Below, in pieces: positions 2,317 to 36,364 of a stretch of DNA of 64,000 bases. Origin of the DNA: an uncultured bacterium. Lineage in GTDB: Bacteria; Fidelibacterota; Marinisomatia; Marinisomatales; JACNKV01. The DNA lies in assembly GCA_964645915.1 (NCBI GenBank), contig CAZYDH010000004.1, forward strand, positions 7,224 through 71,223, in the 5' to 3' direction. Made by a program: the position numbers and the translations under genes. Position 1 is the stretch's first letter; every line of letters begins with the position of its first letter. The notes below the pieces were generated by a model, which saw only the letters and a list, made by a program, of their open reading frames with translations, had not been told where the DNA came from and searched no databases.

Positions 2317-3180
2317 TTAATCGATTTCAACTATCTTGTTTCTTTTATAATGTTTTCCGTCATAACATACTGTACAGGCAACGGTTTTTGGATCATGTTC
2401 AAAAAATAAAATCCAATTATTTTCGGTTGCGAGTTTTAACAAATCCTTTTTTTCCTGAATGGTTGTCATTGGCATAATATCATACGCCATAATCCACGGA
2501 ATGGGAATATGTGAAGCGGTTGGAATAAGATCTGCGGTAAACACCAAGGTTTTTTCATCATCATAAATTACAGGTATTAACTGTCCGGTTGTATGCCCGT
2601 TACTTATCATCACATCTACTCCGGGAAACAAAGAATTCCTTTTGGGAAAATTTGGTATATCTTTCACAAGTTGAATCATCTGATTTTCTTCAAGGACCTT
2701 CCAATCTGCTTCCATAAAACTACCTTGATCTTTTTCTCCGGGTGAGTTTGCCAATGTCCAGTTATCTTGATGAATCCAGTATCGTGCGTTAGGAAACACA
2801 GGTTTAATTTCCCCGTTTTGAATTTCGGTGTTACCTCCGATGTGATCAAAATGCAAGTGAGAGCAAATCACATCTGTGATATCTTCCGGAGTAAATCCTA
2901 ATTCACTCAAAGTATTTTGAAGATTTACAGATTCTGTATCTATTTTGTAGATATCCTTAAACTTGTCTTTCCATTTTGTGCCATTTCCGGTATCGATCAA
3001 TATTCTTCTATCTTTGCTTACAAGAAACAATGATCGTGTCACCATTTGGATCCGATTATTTTCATCTGTGGGGGATTCTTTTTCCCAAAGAGGTTTTGGA
3101 ATGATTCCAAACATGGCACCACCATCTAATCCGAATTTACTTGTTTCGATTCTGTATATAGTATATTCGCCAATTTTCAT
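2317..3180 (-). CDS. MBL-fold metallo-hydrolase
   Basis: 287 aa with the HxHxDH motif (SHLHFDHIGG) and downstream His/Asp ligands. Confidence 0.8.
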   Translation of the reverse strand: MKIGEYTIYRIETSKFGLDGGAMFGIIPKPLWEKESPTDENNRIQMVTRSLFLVSKDRRILIDTGNGTKWKDKFKDIYKIDTESVNLQNTLSELGFTPEDITDVICSHLHFDHIGGNTEIQNGEIKPVFPNARYWIHQDNWTLANSPGEKDQGSFMEADWKVLEENQMIQLVKDIPNFPKRNSLFPGVDVMISNGHTTGQLIPVIYDDEKTLVFTADLIPTASHIPIPWIMAYDIMPMTTIQEKKDLLKLATENNWILFFEHDPKTVACTVCYDGKHYKRNKIVEID

Positions 3181-4455: not shown

Positions 4456-6243
4456 TTATTTCAAATAGATCATTTTTCTGCTAAACACAACCGGTGGATA
4501 ATCTTTTGTTTGTGCGCTGATCGTAATAAAATAAACTCCACTGGATAGCTGTAATCCTTCCCAATTAAAATTATAAGATCCTTTTGACAAGAGTTCATCT
4601 TCTACCAAAATCTCAATAATCCTTCCGGTTGCATCGGAAATATGCAGATTCACAACTGCAGATTCTATCATATCAAAGAAAATTGTTGTAGAATGATTAA
4701 ATGGGTTCGGATAATTTTGGTATAATGCAAAAATCGCCGGAATGAAAGGTGCCTGCGAATCCTCTTTCAATAAATTGGACTCTCCTAACGTAGTGTTTTG
4801 ACTTTTTGTCCACTTACCCCCATCCGGATTTCGCTCCTCCGAACTACCTTCAATTTTGTCCAACATTTTGCTTTCCAGAATTCTCCAGTCGTCATTCTCT
4901 AATTGCTCTTTTAGATGGATCCATGTTATCTGTTCTTTAATAACATCGAATGTAAAAGTGGAGTCATAAAATACTTCATTTATTAAATAACTTGGTTGGA
5001 TCTCCCAGATTAATTCTTCTTCATTAAAAACACCATACGTTCTCTGAAGATCCTCATATCCGGCAATTTCAATCGACCATGTATTTTCCGTTGGTGTAAC
5101 ATACCATTCGTTAATCCAGGCAGTCTCTTTCAAGGTACATAATTGATCTTCAGAATCACAAATAAACTCTCCATCAAACGTTATGGAATAGGTCTTGTCC
5201 GAATTTGTCGGGATGGTTTGAATGACCCGATCCGAGGAGATTAAGTTAGCATACTCCCAATAATCCGGGATTGTTAGCAATATTGTATCACCTTTCTCTA
5301 AAGATTTCTCTATTGGAATACTCAAATGCTCATTTTCCCAAGACAAGAAAAAATTATTAATCTCGAGATGTTCAGTCTTAATCAACAGTATTTTTACTTG
5401 ATGCTTATCATTTGGATGATAACCTGACATCCACATGGGTGGTAAGGATTGATAGTATTCTGTCTCTAATTGAAATTTATCTGATAATTCTCTAAATCTC
5501 TCAGTGAATTTATTGAGGATTTTACCTTGAATTGCTTTCCACTCAGTTGGAGTTATCATCATCCGATTCCTAATTGCAGATTGTACTTCAAAACAGGATT
5601 GAGAGAATTTCTCAGCAATATCTTGGTGAAATACTGTGTTTGTCACAGGTGTAAGTAAAGAAATATCGGTTTTGAGAAAAACTTTTATCCAAGGATGATC
5701 CCAACGTATTTCTTCATGTAAAAGTTGTGATAAGTCTTCGATAGCAGATATTGATAGATCAGGGAGTTCGTCTTTTAGAATATTTTGAAGTGTTAAATCG
5801 GTAAACTTTTCGATGGATAACGTCTGAATGTATTCAGCGTACGGTTCCAATTTTTCTTCAGAAACTGTTTGTTGTATCGATCTTCCAAAGGGTGGAGTGT
5901 CATCCTGAGATTCAATTAAATTTCCATTCTCCAATAAGATTTGCATTTTATAAAAATATCGTTGATCCTGTTTTATCTGATCATCACAATATCGTGTAGA
6001 CGTCGGTGTGACGGTATCAAGTTTTAGGAATGGTGACTGAAATTCGGTTTTTCGTAAAATGATTATTTCGACCGGATCAGTGTTTTCCGGTAAATCCCAT
6101 ACCAATAAAATGGAATGTGTTCCTTCGTATAATTCAAGTGCAATTCTGTCAGAATTTTGAGCAGATAGCTGCAAGATCAGGAACAAAATTGGGATGAAAG
6201 TGAATATTCTTTTGAATTGCCTCATGAAATGAAATCCTTGCAA
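4456..6243 (-). CDS. Secreted protein of unknown function with a T9SS C-terminal sorting domain
   Basis: 595 aa with an N-terminal signal peptide. The C-terminal ~80 aa (YQNYPNPFNHSTTIFF...GVYFITI...KMIYLK) fits the T9SS type A sorting domain pattern. Confidence 0.6.
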   Translation of the reverse strand: MQGFHFMRQFKRIFTFIPILFLILQLSAQNSDRIALELYEGTHSILLVWDLPENTDPVEIIILRKTEFQSPFLKLDTVTPTSTRYCDDQIKQDQRYFYKMQILLENGNLIESQDDTPPFGRSIQQTVSEEKLEPYAEYIQTLSIEKFTDLTLQNILKDELPDLSISAIEDLSQLLHEEIRWDHPWIKVFLKTDISLLTPVTNTVFHQDIAEKFSQSCFEVQSAIRNRMMITPTEWKAIQGKILNKFTERFRELSDKFQLETEYYQSLPPMWMSGYHPNDKHQVKILLIKTEHLEINNFFLSWENEHLSIPIEKSLEKGDTILLTIPDYWEYANLISSDRVIQTIPTNSDKTYSITFDGEFICDSEDQLCTLKETAWINEWYVTPTENTWSIEIAGYEDLQRTYGVFNEEELIWEIQPSYLINEVFYDSTFTFDVIKEQITWIHLKEQLENDDWRILESKMLDKIEGSSEERNPDGGKWTKSQNTTLGESNLLKEDSQAPFIPAIFALYQNYPNPFNHSTTIFFDMIESAVVNLHISDATGRIIEILVEDELLSKGSYNFNWEGLQLSSGVYFITISAQTKDYPPVVFSRKMIYLK

Positions 6244-25388: not shown

Positions 25389-25402
25389 CAAAAAATAAAA
25401 AT

Positions 25403-25424
25403 CCCGAATTTCTCGGGTTTTTTA
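25403..25424. terminator. Intrinsic terminator hairpin (CCCGA-attTC-TCGGG) flanked by an A-run and a T-run; probably bidirectional (tRNA-Phe / aroQ)
   Basis: Read directly: aaaaataaaaatCCCGAatttcTCGGGtttttt. It lies between the 3' end of the tRNA and the aroQ stop codon. Confidence 0.5.
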
Positions 25425-25426
25425 TT

Positions 25427-25855
25427 TTAATATAACGAACAAAGTAACTGGATCGCTTTTAAGTAGCCTTCTTTCCCCAGTCCTTTTAATTGTGTTACAC
25501 ACACTTCTTTGATAACCGATATTTTTCTAAACTCCTCACGTGTTTCAATATCACTTAAATGAACTTCTACCGTGGGAATTTTAACAGCTTCAATGGCATC
25601 TCGTATCGCATAGGAATAATGAGTAAAAGCACCCGGATTAATGATTATTCCGTCCGCCCAATCTATGGATTCATGAATACGATCTATGATCTCTCCTTCG
25701 TGATTGGATTGAAAAAATTTCAACATAACATCTAATAGTTTTGATTTGGAGACTAACCAGCCTTCAACTTGCTCTAAAGTTTCATTTCCATAAACATCCG
25801 GTTCACGCAACCCGAGTAAATTCAGATTCGGACCGTTGATGACTAATATTTTCAC
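25427..25855 (-). CDS. aroQ: Type II 3-dehydroquinate dehydratase
   Basis: 142 aa with ILVINGPNLNLLGxREPxxYG and the HxSN/INPGAxTHxS blocks. Confidence 0.9.
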   Translation of the reverse strand: MKILVINGPNLNLLGLREPDVYGNETLEQVEGWLVSKSKLLDVMLKFFQSNHEGEIIDRIHESIDWADGIIINPGAFTHYSYAIRDAIEAVKIPTVEVHLSDIETREEFRKISVIKEVCVTQLKGLGKEGYLKAIQLLCSLY

Positions 25856-26928
25856 AGCACCTCCAAAGATTGTACTATATCCTGATCTGATAGACTATCA
25901 TTCGTTATGGCATTTCCGATTCCATCGAGTAAGACAAAGTGAAGTTTGCCTTCATAATATTTTTTATCATGACGGATGGTTTTTAATATTTCATCATGAT
26001 CAGGGGTATCAAATTTTGGTAACGATAATTTTCTTAATGTTCCTTCAATTTCATTCCATTCACTTTTTGAAATCAATCCTTTTTTAAATGAAATATATCC
26101 ACTGCAGAGCATTCCGTAAGCCACAGCTTCACCATGTCTCAAAACACCATCATTGGTCAATGTCTCAAAAGCATGTCCGATCGTGTGTCCGAAATTCAAT
26201 ATTCTTCGCAGACCACTTTCATATTCATCAGTAGAAACGATGTTAGCTTTGATTTTACATGAACGTGCAATACTTTCTTCTAAAAGGGATTCATCGTTCA
26301 AATTATTTGGTAAAGAACCATCTGATATTTTTCGGAAGAATTCTTTATCCCTGATCAAACCATATTTAAGCATCTCAGCAAATCCGGACACTTTTTCTCT
26401 TTTAGGTAAAGTATCTAACAAATTAGGATCAATAATAACTTTTTTAGGTTGATAAATTGCACCCACCAAATTTTTTCCTTCAAGAAGATTTACTCCGGTT
26501 TTCCCTCCAATGGAGGAATCAATCATAGCTAATAAAGTCGTCGGAAATTGGATGTACTTGATCCCTCGCATATATGTGGATGCCACAAATCCGGTAACAT
26601 CTCCAACCACACCTCCACCCAAAGCAATCAATAGAGTATTTCGATCACAATTATTTGATAATAGCTGTCTATATAGTTTTTCTATTTGTGAAATAGATTT
26701 TGCTGACTCACCGCACGGAACTGTAATCAAATCACAAGGCAGTCCAACTTTTTTCATTGACATCAAAAGCAAAGTTCCATAGTCGTCCACAAGATTCGGC
26801 TGTGTTATTATCATCCATCGACTGACTTGATCCATCTTTGAATGACGATCTGCAAACGTAGATATAGCTCCTCTTTCAATATCAATCGAGTACGAACGTT
26901 GTTTAAGATTTACGGTGATAGACTGCAT
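25852..26928 (-). CDS. aroB: 3-dehydroquinate synthase
   Basis: 358 aa with LGGGVVGDVTGFVA, GGKTGVNL and HTIGHAFE blocks. Confidence 0.9.
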   Translation of the reverse strand: MQSITVNLKQRSYSIDIERGAISTFADRHSKMDQVSRWMIITQPNLVDDYGTLLLMSMKKVGLPCDLITVPCGESAKSISQIEKLYRQLLSNNCDRNTLLIALGGGVVGDVTGFVASTYMRGIKYIQFPTTLLAMIDSSIGGKTGVNLLEGKNLVGAIYQPKKVIIDPNLLDTLPKREKVSGFAEMLKYGLIRDKEFFRKISDGSLPNNLNDESLLEESIARSCKIKANIVSTDEYESGLRRILNFGHTIGHAFETLTNDGVLRHGEAVAYGMLCSGYISFKKGLISKSEWNEIEGTLRKLSLPKFDTPDHDEILKTIRHDKKYYEGKLHFVLLDGIGNAITNDSLSDQDIVQSLEVL

Positions 26929-26929
26929 A

Positions 26930-27466
26930 TTATTGATTCACTAGTTTACTAATTTCATTTACAACTTCAATCGGTGTCAAATCGTCTGTTATTATAGTGT
27001 GATCTGCTGTTTTCTCATAAAATGATCTCCGCTCTGACCAGATGGATTCCAACTGAGATAATAAAGGTTTGTCATGTTTCAACAGAGGTCTTTTTTCAAC
27101 ATTGCGAATTCGATGTTTGATAGTTTTTGGTTCAGCTTTTAACAGGATAGTCGTTCCATTTTTAGACATGATTTGTCGGTTCAATTTGTTCAGGACAATT
27201 CCCCCTCCGGTTGAAATGATCCTATCTTGTTTATCAGATATCCTTTTTAAAGTATCCGTTTCAATAATTCTAAAATGTTCTTTTCCATGAGTTTCAAATA
27301 TTTCCCGAATACTTTTGGCTTCTGTTAGTTCTATCTCTTCATCAATGTCGATGAATTCCAACCCTAATTCGCTTGCTGCGAGTTTTCCGACGGTGGTTTT
27401 CCAGCTTCCCATCATTCCGATGAGAAATATTGGTTTTTGGAGATTGATTTTTGATTTTTTCTTCAA
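26930..27466 (-). CDS. aroK: Shikimate kinase
   Basis: 178 aa with P-loop GMMGSWKTTVGK, DID and STGGG blocks. Confidence 0.85.
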   Translation of the reverse strand: MKKKSKINLQKPIFLIGMMGSWKTTVGKLAASELGLEFIDIDEEIELTEAKSIREIFETHGKEHFRIIETDTLKRISDKQDRIISTGGGIVLNKLNRQIMSKNGTTILLKAEPKTIKHRIRNVEKRPLLKHDKPLLSQLESIWSERRSFYEKTADHTIITDDLTPIEVVNEISKLVNQ

Positions 27467-27500
27467 GGTTTATTGAAGCATTTCTAATGTATTCTTAAAT

Positions 27501-28658
27501 CTAATTAAATCGATCTTTAATTGCGGAAATTGTATCTCCACCCGTCACTTCTAACAACGCATCTGCTAATACCAAACACACCATTGCTTCTCCAACAATG
27601 GAAGCTGCCGGAACCGCACAGGAGTCTGTCCGCTCTTTATGAGCTTTCGTTGGTTCTTTTGTATTAATATCAACCGATTTTAAAGGTTTGGTTAACGTTG
27701 GGATCGGTTTCATTACTGCCCGTAAAATAATCGGTTCACCATGACTTACTCCGCCTTCTATTCCACCGGAATTATTGGAATATCTAAAATAATCTTTCCC
27801 GTCAATTCCGATCTCATCATGTACTTCACTTCCAAATTGAGAAGCGAACCCAAATCCAAGACCTATTTCAACTCCTTTGATCGCATTAATGGACATAACA
27901 GCTTCTGTCAAACGCGAATTCAGTTTTCTATCCCAATGGACATATGAACCAAATCCTGTGGGAACTCCGGTTGCAATCACTTCAAAGACCCCACCTACTG
28001 AATCTCCATTCTTTTGGGCTCTTTGGATTACTTTAACCATTTTTGGTTCCACATCGGTATTCAAACATCTTACGAGAGATTTATCAGCTAGTTCATTCAA
28101 TTTTTCCGGATTCATATCTTCTGAAATCTTGGTTTGATCAATGACTTTATGAATCTGTGTCACTCGGCTTCCAACAGAAATTCCTACTTCTTTTAATAGT
28201 TTTCTACAAATCGATCCCAATGCAACCCTCATCGCAGTTTCACGCGCAGATGATCTTTCCAGCACATTTCGAATATCAGTAAATCCATATTTTTTTATAC
28301 CAGCTAAATCTGCATGTCCTGGTCGTGGAACCGTAACTGGTTTTATAGGATTCTCTTGGGGATCAATCGACATTCGTTCTTGCCAGTTTTCCCAATCTTT
28401 ATTTTGTATAAATAATCCGATCGGAGATCCTAATGTTTTTCCAAATCTTACCCCGGAAATGATTTCGGCATAATCCTGTTCGATCTTCATTCGCCCTCCA
28501 CGACCAAACCCCATTTGTCGTCGTGATAAATCTTTTTCAATCCATTTTTCTGATAATTCAAGCCCTGCGGGTAGCCCTTCGATAATCCCCATCAATCCTT
28601 TGCCATGGGATTCCCCTGCAGTCAAAAAACGTAATCTATTCATTACTCTGTTTCTCAA
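27501..28658 (-). CDS. aroC: Chorismate synthase
   Basis: FLTAGESHG, RPGHAD and GGxSxGE blocks. An alternative start at M6 (28643) is equally plausible. Confidence 0.9.
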   Translation of the reverse strand: MRNRVMNRLRFLTAGESHGKGLMGIIEGLPAGLELSEKWIEKDLSRRQMGFGRGGRMKIEQDYAEIISGVRFGKTLGSPIGLFIQNKDWENWQERMSIDPQENPIKPVTVPRPGHADLAGIKKYGFTDIRNVLERSSARETAMRVALGSICRKLLKEVGISVGSRVTQIHKVIDQTKISEDMNPEKLNELADKSLVRCLNTDVEPKMVKVIQRAQKNGDSVGGVFEVIATGVPTGFGSYVHWDRKLNSRLTEAVMSINAIKGVEIGLGFGFASQFGSEVHDEIGIDGKDYFRYSNNSGGIEGGVSHGEPIILRAVMKPIPTLTKPLKSVDINTKEPTKAHKERTDSCAVPAASIVGEAMVCLVLADALLEVTGGDTISAIKDRFN

Positions 28659-29484
28659 GATAATTATATAATTCGGTTTTGTTTACTTTTTTGGATAGTG
28701 ACTCATTAAACCAAATATCCAATGCGGACAGTCCTTGATACATCAACATAGACAGTCCCCCAATCGATCTTCCACCGATTTCATGATTCAATTTACGGAA
28801 TTGTGACCATACAGGGGTGTAAACGATATCAACAGCTATTTGAGTTGGAAATACATATTCTTTATACATCGGATTTTGATGCACTTGAGGAGACATTCCA
28901 ACCGATGTTCCGTTAATGATGACTGATGATTTTAAAATTTTGGATGGAATATTTTCCCAGGTTGCAACAGTCATTTTTTGTTTAGGAAACTGTTTCCGCA
29001 TGTCTTTTATTAATGATCGAGCTTTTTCTTCGGTTCGGTTAATAATCCAAATCTTATTTGCATTTTCAACGGATAGACCATACAAGATCGCTCTTGCTGC
29101 ACCTCCTGCACCCAATAAAATGAAGTCCCTATTCTGAATATCAATATTTAATGACGAAAGTGAATAAATGAATCCTATCCAATCTGTATTATAGCCAATT
29201 AATCTTCCACCTTCTCTGGAAATACAATTAACCGCACCAATATTTTTTGCATGTTCATCTAGTTTGTCTAAAAAGGGGATAACTTTTTGTTTATATGGGA
29301 TCGTGACGTTCAACCCTTCATATAATCCATTTCTAATATCAGAAATAACACTGCTTAATTCATGCTCTTTCACAGGATGGGCTTGGTGATTAGCATTCAA
29401 ATTCAAATCGCCGAATATTCGTCTATACATTGCCGGACTTAAACTATGTTCTACTGGATTACCGATTACTGCATATTGTTTCAT
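28636..29484 (-). CDS. aroE: Shikimate dehydrogenase
   Basis: 282 aa with GNPVEHSLSPAMY, NVTIPYK, NTDWIGF and GAGGAARA blocks. Confidence 0.85.
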   Translation of the reverse strand: MKQYAVIGNPVEHSLSPAMYRRIFGDLNLNANHQAHPVKEHELSSVISDIRNGLYEGLNVTIPYKQKVIPFLDKLDEHAKNIGAVNCISREGGRLIGYNTDWIGFIYSLSSLNIDIQNRDFILLGAGGAARAILYGLSVENANKIWIINRTEEKARSLIKDMRKQFPKQKMTVATWENIPSKILKSSVIINGTSVGMSPQVHQNPMYKEYVFPTQIAVDIVYTPVWSQFRKLNHEIGGRSIGGLSMLMYQGLSALDIWFNESLSKKVNKTELYNYLEKQSNE

Positions 29485-30623
29485 TATAGACGCTCAAATG
29501 CTTGATTTAAAATCTCTTCATTTGCACAAAGAGACACTCGAATAAATTCTTTACCCTGATTTCCTAATACCGACCCGGGAGTCACAAAAATATGGTGTTT
29601 CTTTAGTAACCAATCTGAAAATTCATCAGCATTTTTATATTTGTAGGGGATACTTGTCCACACAAACATCCCCGATTGATTATTCGAATATTTACATCCC
29701 AGTTTATCCAGAATTTGATAGACAATATTACGCCTTTTTTCATAGGCCATATTTAGTTCAGAAATCCATTCTTCTGAACTATTTAATGCCTTGATTGCAG
29801 CTTGTTGAATAGGGTAAAATAAACCTGAATCAACATGACTTCTTATATTAAGAACTGATTGTATTGCACTTGAAGATCCCGCCATTAATCCCACACGCCA
29901 CCCGGACATATTAAATGTTTTACTTAATGAATTTAATTCTATTGCTGTTTCCTTTGCGTTGGAGACTGATAAAATGCTATTCTGTGAATTATTTAAAATA
30001 AACCCATATGGATTATCATGACAAATCAGAACGTCATTTGACAATCCAAATTCAACTAACTTTTCAAATAATCTATGATTACCTTTTGCTCCTGTTGGCA
30101 TATGCGGATAATTCACCCACATCATTTTTACTTTACTTAAATCTTGATTTCTAATTTGATCTAGATCAGGTAACCATCCATTTTTCTCAGTCAGTAAATA
30201 TGATTTTGGAATTGCATCCGCGATAATTGTAGCATTTTTATATGTTGGATAACCCGGATCCGGGACAAGAACAATATCCCCGGGATTCAGAAAAGCTAGA
30301 GAAATAAAATTAATTCCTTCTTTGGAACCTGCTAAAGGGAGAATCTCATTTTTTGGAGATAATTTGACGTTAAAATATTTTAAATACCACTTAGAAATCG
30401 CTTCTCGTAATTCCAGTGAACTTCTGTAGGGTTGATATCCATGAAAATCAGATTGATTGGCAGTATTTGTAAGCGTAGCAATAACCGCTTGAGGAGGTTG
30501 CATGTCCGGATTTCCCAAACCTAAATTGATTAATGGTGGATTACCCAACTCCTCAATCTCTTGAAGTTTTTTTGAGAAATAATATTCTCCTATTGAAGCT
30601 GTTCTCTTTGATGGATTAATCAT
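29484..30623 (-). CDS. PLP-dependent class I/II aminotransferase (probable aromatic/prephenate aminotransferase by context)
   Basis: 379 aa with the SLSKTFNMSGWRVG PLP-lysine block. It is embedded in the aro operon with 1-nt and 8-nt overlaps to its neighbours. Confidence 0.7.
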   Translation of the reverse strand: MINPSKRTASIGEYYFSKKLQEIEELGNPPLINLGLGNPDMQPPQAVIATLTNTANQSDFHGYQPYRSSLELREAISKWYLKYFNVKLSPKNEILPLAGSKEGINFISLAFLNPGDIVLVPDPGYPTYKNATIIADAIPKSYLLTEKNGWLPDLDQIRNQDLSKVKMMWVNYPHMPTGAKGNHRLFEKLVEFGLSNDVLICHDNPYGFILNNSQNSILSVSNAKETAIELNSLSKTFNMSGWRVGLMAGSSSAIQSVLNIRSHVDSGLFYPIQQAAIKALNSSEEWISELNMAYEKRRNIVYQILDKLGCKYSNNQSGMFVWTSIPYKYKNADEFSDWLLKKHHIFVTPGSVLGNQGKEFIRVSLCANEEILNQAFERL

Positions 30624-31878
30624 GTTTTTCCATCACACTTTCCAACGCTTCAAAAAACTGAGGATAGGATATATTAACACAATTTTTATTATCTAGAACG
30701 ATTTCACCTTTTGCGATTAATCCAGCAATAGTAAATGCCATAGCAATTCGATGATCGCGAAATGTATTTATTTTTCCACCCTTAAGTTTTGTAGGTCCTT
30801 GAATGATAAAACCATCATCTAATTCTGTAATAGAAGCACCCATTGAAAGTAAATTTGAACAAATTGCATGAAGTCTGTCACATTCTTTAACTCGTAATTC
30901 CTCAGCTCCTCTAACTTCTGTGATACCTTCTGCTTGAGTTGCTAAAATGGCTAAAATTGGTAGTTCATCAATCAATCCAGGAATGGCTTCATTATCTAAA
31001 GTTATTCCACGCAATTCAGAATGTTTAATATGGATATCTCCCCTCGATTCCCCACATTCAGTTCTTTCATTATCAATTTTTATATTTCCGCCCATTTGTT
31101 TTAACACAGAGAAAAAACCGATTCGAGTAGGATTGATCGAAACATCACTCAAAACAAGATCTGATCCTTTAACTAATGTAGGTGCGGCTGCGAAAAAAGC
31201 TGCAGTTGAAGGATCAGCCGGAACAAACATATTAAATGGGGATAATTTACTTTTAAACGGAGAAATTGTGATTTCATTTCCATTTATTCGAATGTCGGCA
31301 TTCATGTTCAATAACATCTGCTCAGTATGATCGCGGGTCTTAATTGGTTCTATAACGGTTGTAGGTTCATCTGCTTTTAAACCGGCAAGGAGGACCGCTG
31401 ATTTTACCTGAGCACTTGCAATCGAGGGTGAATATTGGATCCCGTTCAATTTTACCGATTCTAATAATATCGGAAGATGTTCTTTTGTGCTTTTAATATT
31501 TGCACCCATTTGTGTTAATGGATCCATAATTCGTTTCATCGGACGTTTGGATAAAGATGCATCTCCTACAAATTTTGCTTTTATCCCCTGCCCTGCTAAT
31601 AATCCAATCAATAATCGAACAGTTGTTCCGGAATTACCACAATCCAAATCCATCGTGGGATGTTGAAATGGTCCACCGTTTATTAATAAAGTTGACCCAT
31701 CTTCTTCAATTTTTATTCCACACGATTCTAAGCATTTTCTAGTTGAATCAACATCCACTCCTGTAGATAAATTTGTAATTTGGCATTGTCCATCGGCTAA
31801 AGCCGCCAACATCAATGCTCGGTGTGAGATTGATTTATCTCCCGGAAATGTTAATTTACCACTTATCGCCATCTTCAA
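30616..31878 (-). CDS. aroA: 3-phosphoshikimate 1-carboxyvinyltransferase (EPSP synthase)
   Basis: 420 aa with PGDKSISHRALMLAAL, NSGTTVRLL and DHRIAMAF blocks. Confidence 0.9.
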   Translation of the reverse strand: MKMAISGKLTFPGDKSISHRALMLAALADGQCQITNLSTGVDVDSTRKCLESCGIKIEEDGSTLLINGGPFQHPTMDLDCGNSGTTVRLLIGLLAGQGIKAKFVGDASLSKRPMKRIMDPLTQMGANIKSTKEHLPILLESVKLNGIQYSPSIASAQVKSAVLLAGLKADEPTTVIEPIKTRDHTEQMLLNMNADIRINGNEITISPFKSKLSPFNMFVPADPSTAAFFAAAPTLVKGSDLVLSDVSINPTRIGFFSVLKQMGGNIKIDNERTECGESRGDIHIKHSELRGITLDNEAIPGLIDELPILAILATQAEGITEVRGAEELRVKECDRLHAICSNLLSMGASITELDDGFIIQGPTKLKGGKINTFRDHRIAMAFTIAGLIAKGEIVLDNKNCVNISYPQFFEALESVMEKHD

Positions 31879-33217
31879 TTCGGTTCAATTCTTCAGAGGC
31901 AAGAAATGCTAATTCAATCGCTTGACTCGCATTCAACCTCGGATCACAATGAGTGCGGTAGCGATTTGTTAAATCTTTTTCAGAAATATCTGCGATTCCT
32001 CCTGTACATTCGGTCACGTTTTGTCCTGTCATTTCCAAATGGAGCCCCCCCGCGTGTGTTCCTTCAGTGCGATGGATTCTTATATTATGTTTTACCTCCG
32101 TCAACACATGGTCAAATGGACGTGTTTTCAATTCCCCACTACTTTTTATTGTATTCCCGTGCATCGGATCGCAGGACCACACAACTGTTCGTCCTTCAGA
32201 TTCAATCCTATTGATTATCTTTGGTAAAATATCACAGATTTTATTATGCCCAAATCGAGTAATTAATGTAATTCTCCCTGGGATATCATTTGGATTAAGA
32301 ATATCCAATAATTTTACTAATTCATCTAAATCTGTTTTCGGTCCACATTTAATACCGATCGGATTTTCAATTCCTCTGCAAAACTCAACATGTGCACTGT
32401 CAATAAACCGAGTTCTGTCACCAATCCATACAAAATGTGCTGAGGTATTGTATACTAAACCCGTTATGGAATCTTGTCGTGTTAATGCTTCTTCAAAGGG
32501 TAGTAAAAGCGCTTCATGGCTTGTATAAAAATCAACTTTTCGCAACTGGGAAGTATTATTTGACGTGATACCCAGTGCTTCCATAAAATGCAAATTCTCC
32601 TGAATTTGATCTGCCAAATGTCTGTATCGATCTCCCTGCGGATCACTTTTTACGAAACCCATATTCCAAGAATGAACATGTTTTAGATCAGCATATCCTC
32701 CATCGGCAAATGCTCTTAAGAGATTTAAAGTTGAAGCTGATTGAGAATACGCTTTAAGCATCCGTGATGGATTTGGTTTTCTATTTTCTAAATCAAACTC
32801 GATACCATTTATAATATCTCCCATATAACTTGGTAACGTTTCATCACCTTGTGTTTCGGTAGGAAATGATCTTGGCTTAGCAAACTGTCCGGCAATTCTT
32901 CCCATTCGTACGATGGGAAGCCTTGTCCCATGGGTAAGAATGGCTGCCATCTGTAGAATCACTCTAAATGTATCCCTTATTGAATCCGCGTTGAATTCTG
33001 TAAAACTTTCGGCACAATCTCCTCCCTGCAAAAGGAAACCATTTCCCTCGGCAACTTTTGCAAGAGAGTCTCTTAGCAAACGGACTTCACCGGCAAATAC
33101 TAATGGTGGAAAGTCTCCTAATACTTTTACAACTTTGTCTAACTTATTTTTGTCAGAATATTCCGGAGCATATTTAACAGTAAAATTCTTCCAACTATCT
33201 TTTTGCCAAGGGTTCAT
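31856..33217 (-). CDS. Class II (plant/actinobacterial type) 3-deoxy-7-phosphoheptulonate (DAHP) synthase
   Basis: 453 aa. Its length and blocks (QGGDCAESF, RMGRIAGQFAKPRS, WIGDRTR, DPMHGNT) fit type II DAHPS. Confidence 0.85.
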   Translation of the reverse strand: MNPWQKDSWKNFTVKYAPEYSDKNKLDKVVKVLGDFPPLVFAGEVRLLRDSLAKVAEGNGFLLQGGDCAESFTEFNADSIRDTFRVILQMAAILTHGTRLPIVRMGRIAGQFAKPRSFPTETQGDETLPSYMGDIINGIEFDLENRKPNPSRMLKAYSQSASTLNLLRAFADGGYADLKHVHSWNMGFVKSDPQGDRYRHLADQIQENLHFMEALGITSNNTSQLRKVDFYTSHEALLLPFEEALTRQDSITGLVYNTSAHFVWIGDRTRFIDSAHVEFCRGIENPIGIKCGPKTDLDELVKLLDILNPNDIPGRITLITRFGHNKICDILPKIINRIESEGRTVVWSCDPMHGNTIKSSGELKTRPFDHVLTEVKHNIRIHRTEGTHAGGLHLEMTGQNVTECTGGIADISEKDLTNRYRTHCDPRLNASQAIELAFLASEELNRIEDGDKW

Positions 33218-33218
33218 T

Positions 33219-33941
33219 TCATTTATTATTTAATTGTTTATGAAGTGTCTCGGTAGAACCGATTAATTTTTTGATCATATCTTGAGTAAATGGATTATAG
33301 CGTTGAAGGTCCGAATATAGTTCCCACGAGTCATGGCAGGTTTGTTCGACTAAATCTAATAAATCTCTAAATCCTTGTGTATCGATCATGGTTTTTTTTA
33401 TTCCAAATTCTTTTAACATTCTTCCTAAAAAATGAGTTACTCCCTGAGTGTTAGCAGCCAAACGATCATGTTCTTCAGGTGATATTTCTATTATCTGCAT
33501 TCCTTGATCTCGGAAAAAACGCTTCCAGAATTTAAATTGATTTTGGGTATCTCTGGTATTATTCATCATCATTTTTAAACGATTGTTAGATAGAAATGAA
33601 TCCGGTCCAAACATCGGATGAGTTGCAATAATTCCAACTGAGACGGGTAACTTACTAAGCATAACCTTCGCCGGATGAATTTTAACTGAACACACATCAA
33701 CAACCGTTGTGTTTTCTCTCAACAAAGGAGATATCTTCTCAATGGTTGCATCAAATTTATTGATAGGAACTGCGATAAAGATCACTTTCTCTTCAAGAAC
33801 TTTATCGAGTGATACAAACTCAACACCAGAGAAAGGAGACTGTGACTTTGGATCATATACTTTGATCGGAAATCCTTTTTGAAGAATGTTGGCTAATACT
33901 TTACCAAATCTCCCAAATCCAATTATACCTACGCTATTCAT
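33219..33941 (-). CDS. tyrA: Prephenate/arogenate dehydrogenase (short form, no ACT domain)
   Basis: 240 aa with the N-terminal Rossmann motif GIIGFGRFG and the ATHPMFGP block. Confidence 0.75.
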   Translation of the reverse strand: MNSVGIIGFGRFGKVLANILQKGFPIKVYDPKSQSPFSGVEFVSLDKVLEEKVIFIAVPINKFDATIEKISPLLRENTTVVDVCSVKIHPAKVMLSKLPVSVGIIATHPMFGPDSFLSNNRLKMMMNNTRDTQNQFKFWKRFFRDQGMQIIEISPEEHDRLAANTQGVTHFLGRMLKEFGIKKTMIDTQGFRDLLDLVEQTCHDSWELYSDLQRYNPFTQDMIKKLIGSTETLHKQLNNK

Positions 33942-34510
33942 TGTGTATCCATCCTCTTTACTCCTAAGAATAATGTCAAATTATGTTTCAAATCGTGAAT
34001 ACTTTCTTTTAACACATCTAATCCATAAAGGTCCGCACACGATTTGCTGGCAATGACACCTGCCGTTTTGGGTAATTTTCCTTCTGAAAGTCTTCGAGCA
34101 GCTTCTGCTGTATCATCTTCTTCTATAAGAGGTCGTGTCCAAAAATGTTCACTCAAATAATCCTTGCATTGTCGGAGTGCCTGTTGGTGTGAATGTATCT
34201 CGGTAATATCGCCAACATAAGTTCCCACAAGCCCTAGAAGGTTTTGGTCCACAGGAATATGAAACATTTCAATGATCTCACAACGATATTTTGCTAAGGC
34301 TTCTACACTTTCAATAACAACACCTCCTTGGGCATTTTCCATGGCAAAGATACCATAATCAGTTTCCCCAGTTTCAACGTTTGCAAGAACATGTTCAGAT
34401 GAAATCTGATAAACTATTTTAACTCCTTCCAGACCATGGTTATATGCGAACTCGTGAGCTGCTTGTTCGGAGAAGCTACCTTTTCCACCTTGTATCCCAA
34501 TTTGGATCAT
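33938..34510 (-). CDS. pheA: Prephenate dehydratase, catalytic PDT domain only (no ACT regulatory domain)
   Basis: The QGGKGSFSEQAA block. The protein ends just after the NLTLF (N-x-TRF-like) motif where the ACT domain normally begins. I place the start at M7 of the track ORF (AAAGGAAAT RBS 5-6 nt upstream); the M1 ATG abuts the terminator U-tract. Confidence 0.75.
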   Translation of the reverse strand: MIQIGIQGGKGSFSEQAAHEFAYNHGLEGVKIVYQISSEHVLANVETGETDYGIFAMENAQGGVVIESVEALAKYRCEIIEMFHIPVDQNLLGLVGTYVGDITEIHSHQQALRQCKDYLSEHFWTRPLIEEDDTAEAARRLSEGKLPKTAGVIASKSCADLYGLDVLKESIHDLKHNLTLFLGVKRMDTQ

Positions 34511-34531
34511 TATTTCATTTCCTTTCATTAA

Positions 34532-34557
34532 TAAAAAACCCCGAAAATTTCGGGGTT
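34532..34557 (-). terminator. Strong intrinsic terminator immediately upstream of pheA (candidate attenuator terminator)
   Basis: The minus strand reads AACCCCGAAATTTTCGGGGTTTTTTAT: a GC-rich stem plus a 6-U tract, ending about 20 nt before the pheA start codon. Confidence 0.65.
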
Positions 34558-34587
34558 AGGCTCACTGACTTTAAATACACGTATGAT

Positions 34588-34647
34588 TCAATGGCAGTTT
34601 CCCAACCCATACACAATATATTTAAAGTAATAACATCTTGTTTTCAT
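34588..34647 (-). CDS. Candidate Tyr/Phe-rich leader peptide (19 aa: MKTRCYYFKYIVYGLGNCH)
   Basis: Hand translation of the minus strand. 5 of residues 6-13 are Tyr/Phe. It lies between chorismate mutase and the terminator and is too short for the ORF track. No clear SD. Confidence 0.35.
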   Translation of the reverse strand: MKTRCYYFKYIVYGLGNCH

Positions 34648-34688
34648 GATATTCAAGTTAATTGAAGAAATCCAGTTATTGCAAGTGA

Positions 34689-34961
34689 TTATTTTTCGTG
34701 CTGAACATCTTTCGCTGTTTGAAAGATCGAAGTGAATATTCGTTTGATTTGTTTACGCGTCAATGGGTCATTCGTTTGATTATATAAACGATTTAATATT
34801 GCTTTTTCACGTTCAGTATCTTCAATATTCATCTCGGCTTTCTTTTTTAACTCACCTACTGAACGAGCAATATCCATTCTCTTCACCAAAAGATCAAGAA
34901 GCTCATGATCTATCTTATCAATTTTATCCCGTAAATATTTGAGAGTTTTTTCTTGTTCCAT
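34689..34961 (-). CDS. Chorismate mutase (AroQ class, monofunctional)
   Basis: 90 aa. LRDKIDKIDHELLDLLVKRMDIARSVGELKK matches the helical CM_2 domain pattern. Confidence 0.85.
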   Translation of the reverse strand: MEQEKTLKYLRDKIDKIDHELLDLLVKRMDIARSVGELKKKAEMNIEDTEREKAILNRLYNQTNDPLTRKQIKRIFTSIFQTAKDVQHEK

Positions 34962-34986
34962 ATGCAGACAAAGTGGAGATGAAAAA

Positions 34987-35646
34987 CTATTTCAAGCAAT
35001 AATTATTTTCAAGTAACCAATATTGGAGTTTCTCCAAGTTTTCAAAGACATATGCATCCGTTTCTTTGAGTCTAGAATAGCTTGTATGACCACCTGCCAC
35101 AAGTGCACATTGAGCACCAATTGCTCTCGCCACATCCAAATCATGAAGAGTATCTCCAATAAATAAGACATCGTTTGGGTTAATATTTAACGATTCCACC
35201 CACAGTTTACCTGCTTCTGTTTTTCCATGGGCATAATGATCATCCTGTCCAATAACTTTCTCAAAGTAAAGCGCTAATTCATGATGGTCGATAAGTGTAT
35301 CTAACATTTGTTGTCTCGCAGCAGACAGTAAAGATTGCGTGATCCCTTTTAGTTGTATATCTGCCATTAATGATCGAGCTCCCACATGGAGTTCCGGTTC
35401 AAATTGAAGATTTGTGTATTCTTCAATAAACTCGGTCCCAACAACTGTAAACGGATTTTTATTAAAATCAAAACCCAGTCGTTTGTAATAATCAATAACC
35501 GGAAATGTAAAAATCTTTAAGTAACTCTCCTTTTCTATCGTCGGGAGATCATACCTTTTTAACACAATATTAATTGCTTTTATGGACAACCATAAATCAT
35601 CCAATAATGTTCCGTTCCAATCCCAAATGATATGTTTAATTTTCAT
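34987..35646 (-). CDS. HAD-IA family hydrolase (phosphoglycolate phosphatase-like)
   Basis: 219 aa with motif I IIWDWNGTLLDD and motif IV GDTLHD. Confidence 0.8.
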   Translation of the reverse strand: MKIKHIIWDWNGTLLDDLWLSIKAINIVLKRYDLPTIEKESYLKIFTFPVIDYYKRLGFDFNKNPFTVVGTEFIEEYTNLQFEPELHVGARSLMADIQLKGITQSLLSAARQQMLDTLIDHHELALYFEKVIGQDDHYAHGKTEAGKLWVESLNINPNDVLFIGDTLHDLDVARAIGAQCALVAGGHTSYSRLKETDAYVFENLEKLQYWLLENNYCLK

Positions 35647-35734
35647 GTGTTTCCAGTTATGTAATTCTATTATTCTATTTTAATTCAGTTATTAAGAGAC
35701 GCAGATTACATAAAAAAGACTGTATTTTTCTATA

Positions 35735-36364
35735 TTGATTATGACTATTTTTTCCATCATAGACCCACTGAGTAAGGCTCTTGTAAATCTCCCAGGGAAC
35801 GCTGCCCATCAAAAAATGATCACAATTCCTAGAGCTTTTGCTGACCCACCATATTCCGAATCTGATTCAAAACCAGCAGCGGTTTTGATTTTATTATTTC
35901 CTGACAAGAAAGATATTCGGTTCTTTTTGACTAAGCGCACTCATGATGTTGCTCATCATAAAGGACAGATCTCATTACCCGGGGGTGCTCAAGAAAATAG
36001 TGAATCACTGTCGAATACTGCTCTTAGAGAGACTGAAGAAGAAATTGGAATTAATTCCAGCAAGATATCAATAATAGGAAATCTCTCATCTTTATTTATT
36101 CCGTTTACAGGTTTTACCGTTCATCCGTTTATAGGTTGGATGAAGAATTTTCCGACTGTCAGCCCCGATACAAATGAAGTTAGTCATCTGTTTTCAGTAT
36201 CAATTTATGATCTGATTAATGATGAAAATGTAAAACAGGAAAAAATTATTTATCAGGAGCAAAAGATTACGCTCCCCTATTATCATCTTAAAAATGAAAA
36301 AGTGTGGGGTGCAACAGCGATGATCCTTTCTGAGTTTAAAACGATTTTAAGGAAGTTAATATGA
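35735..36364 (+). CDS. NUDIX hydrolase, CoA pyrophosphatase-like
   Basis: Nudix box GQISLPGGAQENSESLSNTALRETEEEIGI, plus an upstream LLF.....RT block as in NudL/PCD1. The track start is TTG (35735); an ATG at 35741 is an alternative. Confidence 0.75.
   Translation: MIMTIFSIIDPLSKALVNLPGNAAHQKMITIPRAFADPPYSESDSKPAAVLILLFPDKKDIRFFLTKRTHDVAHHKGQISLPGGAQENSESLSNTALRETEEEIGINSSKISIIGNLSSLFIPFTGFTVHPFIGWMKNFPTVSPDTNEVSHLFSVSIYDLINDENVKQEKIIYQEQKITLPYYHLKNEKVWGATAMILSEFKTILRKLI

Follow-up and report, generated by a model that had tools for sequence, protein, structure and literature searches.

A 160-nt intergenic gap, with a chorismate mutase gene upstream and pheA (prephenate dehydratase) downstream on the minus strand of a 64 kb stretch of DNA referred to here as the window, was analyzed as a candidate transcription attenuator. 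The source phylum of the window is Fidelibacterota (Marinimicrobia/SAR406; also Candidatus Neomarinimicrobiota), a phylum of the FCB group. Judged from its sequence and its conservation in relatives, the gap holds a real, conserved attenuator that would sense Tyr and Phe. With high confidence, it is read as a ribosome-mediated (leader-peptide) attenuator, predicted to tie expression of a 10-gene Phe/Tyr/shikimate unit to the availability of charged tRNA-Tyr and tRNA-Phe.

In the proposed mechanism, transcription would start from a sigma-70-like promoter, no more than 1-2 nt away from the leader AUG, and the leader open reading frame (ORF) would be read leaderless. With ample Tyr and Phe, the ribosome would reach the UGA stop codon and cover the antiterminator strand GGGUUGGG, whose start lies 18 nt ahead of that codon; the terminator 5' arm would then be free, the hairpin would form, and RNA polymerase would halt 22 nt before pheA. 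Under a shortage of Tyr-tRNA or Phe-tRNA, the ribosome would stall at codons 6-8 (YYF), melt a helix termed P1 and expose GGGUUGGG, which would pair with the emerging CCUAACCC, sequester the 5' arm of the terminator and allow read-through. Helix P1, formed by the aromatic codons and the spacer, probably acts as a 1:2-type anti-antiterminator or pause hairpin in the lineage of the window. We infer the transcription start, the translation of the ORF and the amino acid response from the features described below.

Leader peptide, terminator and antiterminator in the window

All elements of the leader lie on the minus strand. The leader ORF (34588-34647; read from the sequence, with homologous ORFs in relatives) has 19 codons, which encode MKTRCYYFKYIVYGLGNCH, followed by a stop codon. 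Tyr and Phe take up 5/19 of these codons, upstream of pheA and tyrA, and all five fall within codons 6-13 (34609-34632), namely Y6, Y7 and F8 (34632-34624), Y10 (34620-34618) and Y13 (34611-34609). A run of five aromatic codons per 8-codon stretch was matched by 1.7% of dinucleotide shuffles (p = 0.017). An earlier reading of the letters and their ORFs (the preliminary description) had reported this frame with four Tyr and one Phe in eight codons, which was confirmed from the sequence.

An intrinsic terminator, AACCCCGAAAUUUUCGGGGUU (34533-34557; consensus scan, and RNAalifold consensus in relatives), follows the ORF and consists of a 9-bp stem (34557-34537, -12.3 to -12.8 kcal/mol), a 3-nt loop and six U (T-run at 34538-34533). 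The run stops 22 nt short of the pheA ATG, and the terminator lies 130 nt beyond the stop codon of the chorismate mutase gene; the preliminary description had recognized this strong terminator, and only its end, given as 34532, was one base too far. The 5' strand of the antiterminator, GGGUUGGG (34601-34608; codons 14-16; duplex prediction and covariation), pairs with the 3' strand, CCUAACCC (34553-34560; duplex prediction, and covariation at helix positions 5-7), which overlaps the terminator 5' arm. This pairing contains one G-U pair, and RNAduplex adds ACUG:CAGU. Its energy in the window was -18.0 kcal/mol, against -10.1 +/- 2.9 kcal/mol for shuffled sequences, and was matched by 3/200 shuffles. 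Terminator and antiterminator are mutually exclusive.

Helix P1 was identified from minimum-free-energy folds and duplex energy. Its 5' strand (34607-34633) overlaps the aromatic codons, its 3' strand lies at 34562-34586, and the helix comprises ACUUUAAAUA : UAUUUAAAGU and GUAUG : CAUAC. When the minus strand was folded, as the preliminary description had proposed, the minimum-free-energy structure of the window leader held P1 and the terminator. The P1 of the window (-18.1 kcal/mol vs. -7.7 +/- 2.4 kcal/mol shuffled; 0/200 shuffles matched it) was the strongest of the set. P1 and the antiterminator cross topologically and share no strand; because their strands merely cross and P1 is made first, their exclusion would be kinetic.

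To follow the effect of a ribosome, nascent RNA up to the terminator loop was folded with the ribosome footprint masked, and the pairing state of the terminator 5' arm was recorded. A ribosome placed on the first aromatic codon left this arm already sequestered with a probability of 0.73; on the last aromatic codon the value fell to 0.22, and on the stop codon to 0.20. The claim that a ribosome at the UGA masks the antiterminator strand is thus borne out both by geometry and by this drop from 0.73 to 0.20. The distance from the start of the antiterminator strand to the stop is 8, 10-11 or 18 nt in related leaders, depending on the subfamily, and at these distances a terminating ribosome must cover the strand. 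The stall model holds for Y6, Y7 and F8, which leave GGGUUGGG free, and these 3/5 aromatic codons would be the plausible sensors in the window.

The part of the gap that leads up to the leader ATG reads TTGCAA-18 nt-TAACTT-7 nt-ATG, that is, a -35-like hexamer TTGCAA (34679-34684; putative promoter, read from the sequence) 18 nt upstream of a -10-like hexamer TAACTT (34655-34660; sequence and conserved spacing), which lies 7 nt before the leader ATG. A TAnnnT motif ending 7-8 nt before the ATG was present in 46/56 related leaders (82%) vs. 26/845 ordinary ORF starts at the same loci (3.1%), and TAnnnT plus a TTG 16-19 nt upstream in 59% of leaders vs. 0.4% of ordinary ORF starts. A Shine-Dalgarno (SD)-like tetramer preceded 2/56 leader ATGs vs. 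61/81 pheA ATGs. The mini-ORF is therefore probably translated from a leaderless or near-leaderless mRNA. Because conserved promoter-like boxes sit 7-8 nt before the leader ATG, we also infer that a separate transcription unit begins with the attenuator and would end at the terminator after aroQ; the preliminary description had placed the element inside an operon fed by upstream read-through, and the boxes found in 82% of leaders contradict this. A Bacteroidetes-type -33/-7 promoter (TAnnTTTG) was considered and rejected, as TAACTTGA of the window does not fit it and the boxes resemble ordinary sigma-70 -35/-10 elements.

Conservation of the leader and of its Trp codons

Relatives were collected as 80 species-representative Fidelibacterota loci around pheA; the closest pheA relatives (70-89% identity) were all from Candidatus Neomarinimicrobiota. 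A full trpA abutted pheA at 43 loci, one locus had trpA followed by a 168-nt gap, 33 had a leader and 3 had trp-deletion scars. At the 33 leader loci (33/80) a leader-like mini-ORF and a terminator stood directly before pheA, with one of them cut by a contig end. Outside the window, 32 species-level genomes had the full arrangement before pheA, and 23 distinct leaders before trpE showed it as well. Homologous leaders were available from 56 loci of the phylum, and across these 56 the ORF keeps its frame, its aromatic positions and its spacing from ATG to -10 box and from stop to antiterminator. The mini-ORF ends 8-18 nt after a GGGUU-type motif, and is followed by a hairpin AACCCCG...CGGGGUU and then 6-9 U.

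In every leader-bearing locus the mini-ORF packed 3-7 aromatic codons, mostly 5-7, into an 8-codon stretch; F, Y and W made up 30% of residues over 31 leaders, and the median p of the aromatic run against dinucleotide shuffles was 0.017 across leaders. The codon pattern was examined in 25 leaders of one subfamily (G-V-L*). Codons 9, 10, 13, 15 and 16 were aromatic in 22-25 of the 25, with TAT and TAC mixed (11:10 and 17:7) and with Y/F swaps, and at the flanking codons the amino acid varied freely. The last three codons were kept as nucleotides (GGG GUU UUG). On this comparison, the aromatic codons are conserved as a codon class in which TAT and TAC are interchangeable.

An equivalent of the GGGUU... 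strand was present in the last ORF codons of 33/33 pheA-type leaders, and in all 33 the antiterminator pairing between the 3' end of the ORF and the terminator 5' arm was possible (-11 to -30 kcal/mol), next to terminators of -11 to -18 kcal/mol. Mean duplex energies were -18.3 kcal/mol for cognate strands, -12.4 kcal/mol for non-cognate strands from other subfamilies and about -9 kcal/mol for shuffled strands. Covariation was counted in a register without gaps whose anchor was the GGG:CCC core, with 39 distinct rows and 500 column permutations; the anchor was picked to maximise pairing, so that of the permutation and sliding controls only permutation is fair. In the anchored register, helix positions 5-7 alternate among U-A, G-C, A-U and C-G. 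Canonical pairs filled 79.7% of cells vs. 68.5 +/- 1.6% after permutation (reached by 0/500), and double-sided changes were seen in 59 cells vs. 27 +/- 4 (reached by 0/500). In the RNAalifold consensus of the terminator, 5/8 pairs had compensatory changes. The antiterminator with one G-U pair and an overlap with the terminator, as first described, is therefore upheld in the window, kept in 33/33 relatives and covaries above all 500 permutations. Column-based covariation on MAFFT alignments A2 and A4 was dropped, as the GGGUU strand of the subfamilies was misregistered and RNAalifold found only the terminator.

In genomes with trpA next to pheA, chorismate mutase is followed by a ~185-nt gap and then by trpE-G-D-C-F-B-A-pheA-tyrA-DAHPS-aroA-aroE-aroC-aroK-aroB-aroQ. 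The same kind of leader occupies this chorismate mutase-trpE gap, e.g., MNNMNTKNYYSWYWFFNQEGVL in locus L084; trpE-type loci were taken from longer contigs and from a metagenome scan with TrpE. A covariance model, R1, was seeded with 32 pheA-type leaders and the window, with no trpE-type leaders. It gave a single match in the window (34530-34647, 66.4 bits; the window is a seed sequence), and it detected trpE-type leaders, which are outside the seed, at 36-115 bits; because a pheA-type seed detects them, pheA-type and trpE-type leaders are taken as one homologous family. R1 gave no match on trpE loci from outside Fidelibacterota.

At least one Trp codon was found in 23/23 distinct peptides of leaders before trpE, and at least two in 20/23, typically as YYSWYWFF. 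Leaders directly before pheA had at least one in 6/31 and at least two in 0/31 (tabulated leaders). The two types differed accordingly (Fisher's test, 5e-10 for at least one Trp codon and 6e-12 for at least two, kinship ignored), and 3/6 of the single Trp codons of pheA-type leaders sit in the UGGGG antiterminator strand, outside the aromatic run. Several peptide subfamilies show the loss of Trp codons; on the pheA tree, a rough Fitch count gave at least 13 arrangement changes, with a trp-containing root. Two loci outside the table, L006 and L020, keep two Trp codons and are the sole trp-less loci with two, both being among the three that bear fresh scars; there, about 40-50 codons of the trpE 5' end are fused to the trpA 3' end, a fusion that looks like a fresh trp deletion. 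At L043 the scar is shorter and the Trp codons are already gone, and the window has neither scar nor Trp codons. Scar loci (L006:2555-3000, L020:2657-3000, L021:2542-3000, L043:2805-3000) have the leader and terminator, then ~8-50 trpE codons (MDKTQLT...) or a trpA 3' fragment, before pheA.

These comparisons support the view that the amino acids sensed by the leader track the aromatic-pathway genes downstream, with Trp codons lost upon trp deletion. They also lead us, by a slight preference, to a wider reading: a leaderless, multivalent, phylum-wide attenuator family in which one mini-ORF would sense Trp, Tyr and Phe and govern a 16-17-gene super-operon, its codons being repeatedly re-tuned after independent trp deletions.

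Competing explanations and known attenuators

Several observations weigh against the attenuator and its history as set out above. The association of Trp codons with trp genes ignores phylogeny, and one subfamily makes up most of the trpE-type set. The aromatic run alone lacks significance in 9/33 loci, and the promoter and the leaderless start are drawn from consensus only. A window ribosome stalled at Y13, and partly one at Y10, would by geometry itself mask GGGUUGGG, so this part of the original stall model does not stand. In the folding model, the antiterminator forms as readily with no ribosome as in the stall (0.71 vs. 0.73), and P1 at equilibrium does not outcompete the antiterminator on untranslated RNA; untranslated transcripts of classical attenuators, e.g., Escherichia coli trp, terminate. 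P1 is significant in only 13/33 relatives, and as a universal 1:2 helix of the family it was rejected on that count; of the earlier claim of such a helix, its presence and strength in the window remain, its place in the core of the element does not. Full-length equilibrium folds favoured the terminator in 29-33 of 33 loci in every masked state. Since this holds in every state, the model depends on co-transcriptional order or kinetics, and full-length equilibrium folding with a mask was set aside as a test that does not discriminate between states.

The first rival explanation accepts the switch and has it set by a trans-acting factor, i.e., a TRAP-type protein, uncharged tRNA (T-box) or a small RNA. 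Formation of the antiterminator without a ribosome in the folding model fits such a factor, as does the putatively T-box-like GGGUGGCACCGCG of distant trpE loci; aromatic supraoperons elsewhere do use such factors, e.g., TRAP in Bacillus subtilis (PMC3064811). However, no T-box or other riboswitch of Rfam matched, even at E <= 10, and with one GAG and no UAG triplet the leader has no TRAP-type array of 9-11 (G/U)AG repeats; of the protein- or ligand-binding motifs that the preliminary description had allowed for as an alternative, none of these kinds appeared. Moreover, the 5' half conserves codon class and not nucleotides (TAT/TAC and Y/F swaps), unlike a binding site, and the fixed distance from stop to antiterminator (8, 10-11 or 18 nt) is explained only by a ribosome. 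Control by a trans-acting factor is accordingly considered very improbable.

Less probable still is that the hairpin and T-run simply terminate chorismate mutase transcripts, that AT-rich DNA gave rise to the mini-ORF by chance, and that pheA is expressed by unregulated leakage or from another start. The terminator does lie downstream of the chorismate mutase gene and would stop its transcripts too, and TAT and TTT codons are common in AT-rich DNA, in keeping with the loci at which the run alone is not significant. But the terminator is separated from the chorismate mutase stop by 130 nt and from pheA by only 22 nt, and a promoter-like site stands ahead of the mini-ORF, downstream of the chorismate mutase gene. 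A chance ORF would also have to account for the frame, spacings and aromatic positions kept in 56 leaders, for an antiterminator that covaries and for Trp codons that track trp genes. The least credible alternative is a TnaC-like arrest peptide, responsive to free aromatic amino acids within the ribosome tunnel, or a peptide that acts in trans, for although leader peptides with trans functions exist (peTrpL, PMC7298713) and a C-terminal G-L or G-V is conserved, that conservation is at the nucleotide level (GGG GUU UUG) and explained by pairing with AACCC, the remaining peptide varies freely save for aromatic class, and the termination-prone default geometry fits biosynthetic attenuators.

The leader-peptide attenuator was compared with known families by Rfam scans of window positions 33500-35800 (E <= 10), of 20 related loci (gathering threshold) and of the leader regions of L084 and L164. 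Only sub-threshold, terminator-driven matches were found in the scanned leader regions, and no curated family fits. RF01859 Phe_leader (gathering threshold 55 bits) had no window match at E <= 10 and scored 23.7 bits in the relative L084. RF00513 Trp_leader (gathering threshold 41 bits) matched window positions 34530-34610 at 25.1 bits (E 0.032) and L084 at 16.4 bits. For RF01692 Bacteroid-trp (gathering threshold 49), no match was found in the window or L084 at E <= 10, nor in the 20 related loci, and no T-box matched in the window region or the 20 related loci. A search of the available literature found no paper on attenuation in Marinimicrobia, and to our knowledge no gene-regulatory mechanism has been described for SAR406/Marinimicrobia.

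The closest functional parallel to the window is the E. coli pheA attenuator (pheL; RF01859), which likewise controls pheA, has its terminator just before pheA, and follows the same logic of a short ORF rich in the pathway amino acid and an exclusive antiterminator and terminator (PMC3082878, PMC11802643). It has no detectable sequence or structure homology to the window leader, senses Phe alone where the window leader is predicted to sense Tyr and Phe (plus Trp in relatives), and controls one gene where the Fidelibacterota leader would control 10-17. Unlike pheL, the Fidelibacterota leader ORF lacks an SD and is probably leaderless. The trpL attenuator (RF00513) has the same four-segment logic, and its weak, below-threshold window match covers GGUUGG and the terminator; the likeness extends to relatives, whose element precedes trpE with two Trp codons, and to Sinorhizobium meliloti rnTrpL, which is also leaderless (PMC6614838). 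The window differs from trpL in that its regulatory codons are mixed aromatic and its 1:2 helix spares the antiterminator strand and is not conserved.

A mixed leader is described for Corynebacterium glutamicum aroR-aroF, where a Phe-Tyr-Phe leader precedes an aro operon containing DAHP synthase and acts by ribosome stalling (Neshat et al. 2014, as summarized in PMC11802643). In that summary, aroR has three regulatory codons, whereas Fidelibacterota leaders have five to eight, and the system, from Actinobacteria, is not described as controlling pheA, tyrA or trp genes; the likeness is by description, and no homology is expected. Within the FCB group, the Bacteroidete tryptophan peptide leader RNA (Bacteroid-trp, RF01692) is a leader-peptide attenuator upstream of trp genes (PMC2864571), but with Trp-only codons and the trp operon only. 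Its existence shows that the novelty argument of the preliminary description, which had called attenuation unusual in this group, was overstated. In the B. subtilis supraoperon, trp genes are nested with tyrA and aro genes under terminator/antiterminator attenuation, yet the sensor is the TRAP protein on (G/U)AG repeats and not a translating ribosome, and the attenuator lies inside the supraoperon just before trpE, whereas that of Fidelibacterota stands at the head of the unit (PMC3064811). Leaderless leader ORFs that regulate amino acid genes, with a start codon at the transcription start or within 1 nt of it and no SD, are known from Deinococcus deserti (PMC4007540) and mycobacteria (bioRxiv 10.1101/834739). 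Their starts were mapped experimentally, whereas that of the window is predicted from promoter spacing, and the phyla and amino acids differ.

Gene neighbourhood and biological meaning

The minus-strand order in the window is HAD hydrolase (34987-35646), chorismate mutase (34689-34961), the 160-nt gap and pheA. The chorismate mutase gene (AroQ-type, 90 aa; Pfam CM_2, E 5.6e-22) is upstream of the attenuator and outside its control, and it adjoins the leader on the upstream side in most related loci checked. The controlled unit (25427-34510, minus strand; Pfam and ORF coordinates) comprises 10 genes in the order pheA, tyrA, class II DAHP synthase, aroA, aminotransferase, aroE, aroC, aroK, aroB and aroQ; the earlier count of pheA plus 10 genes was corrected by Pfam to pheA plus 9. 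A terminator directly after aroQ (25390-25426, minus strand; AAAAACCCGAGAAAUUCGGGAUUUUU; our own hairpin and T-run scan, -11.4 kcal/mol) closes the unit. It is the sole other strong minus-strand terminator, and the 64 kb of the window held no second attenuator-like terminator. A tblastn search with trpE/G/D/C/F/B/A over the whole window (1-64000) found no homologue, so that the source organism is either a Trp auxotroph or carries trp genes outside this stretch.

The start of pheA is the ATG at 34510, backed by 14 homologues in the alignment. The public protein identical to the window pheA (P0001, 196 aa) begins at an upstream ATG, 34528. Because of the homologues and of a conserved SD-like GAAAGGAAA (34518-34526, minus strand, 8 nt before ATG 34510; read from the sequence), 34510 (190 aa) and not 34528 is taken as the true start. 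The GAAAGGAA motif upstream of pheA is conserved, whether it lies in the 3' coding end of trpA or in non-coding DNA.

Further observations concern single genes and loci. A class I/II aminotransferase gene (29484-30623, minus strand) lies between aroA and aroE in the window and is absent from that position in L081 and L084; L084 has a 53-aa ORF there. The chorismate mutase (70-71% identity) and leader peptide of the window are like those of L051/L052, and its pheA is closest (84-89%) to the trp-containing L001-L022 group, with 76-77% to L051/L052; the chorismate mutase/pheA region (34689-34961 vs. 33938-34510) may be a mosaic. L058 has a thiamine pyrophosphate (TPP) riboswitch (2321-2419, minus strand; RF00059, 62 bits) about 0.4 kb upstream of its leader. 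The chorismate mutase-trpE gap of L107 (~2600-2760) has a TAACTT box and an open frame ...SSWWNYYRQKY..., with no start codon and a poor terminator, and may be a decayed attenuator. WWW mini-ORFs (e.g., MKNITESYYHLKNQTIENSWWWHCKHINMTQ) with a terminator precede trpE in L163 (~5900-6035) and L164 (6754-6873), and the L164 region matches Bacteroid-trp weakly (26.3 bits; gathering score 49). GGGUGGCACCGCG, followed by a terminator, occurs ~50-150 nt upstream of trpE in L142, L149, L151, L155-L158, L160-L162 and L166. The trpE loci that bear it are distant (45-49% identity, other phyla); the motif is putatively T-box-like and would point to tRNA-sensing control of trpE there.

The attenuator logic, a case in the FCB group and a mixed Phe/Tyr leader were already known; what is added here is a set of leader codons that co-evolved with trp deletion. 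For annotators, the family supplies an RNA element absent from Rfam. With this attenuator, classical Yanofsky-type attenuation reaches SAR406/Marinimicrobia, a marine phylum for which nearly all knowledge comes from uncultured organisms. The comparative series begins with a W/Y/F leader before an intact trp-phe-tyr-aro super-operon, passes through recent trp deletions in which W is kept, and ends with old deletions and Y/F only; it offers unusually direct evolutionary evidence for leader codons as the sensor. It also marks lineages whose trp genes were deleted from the operon, although the loci alone cannot tell Trp auxotrophy. If the wider reading of a repeatedly re-tuned family is true, the caught intermediates, in which a scar is found together with the old codons, would be a natural experiment showing that codon content is selected to match operon content.

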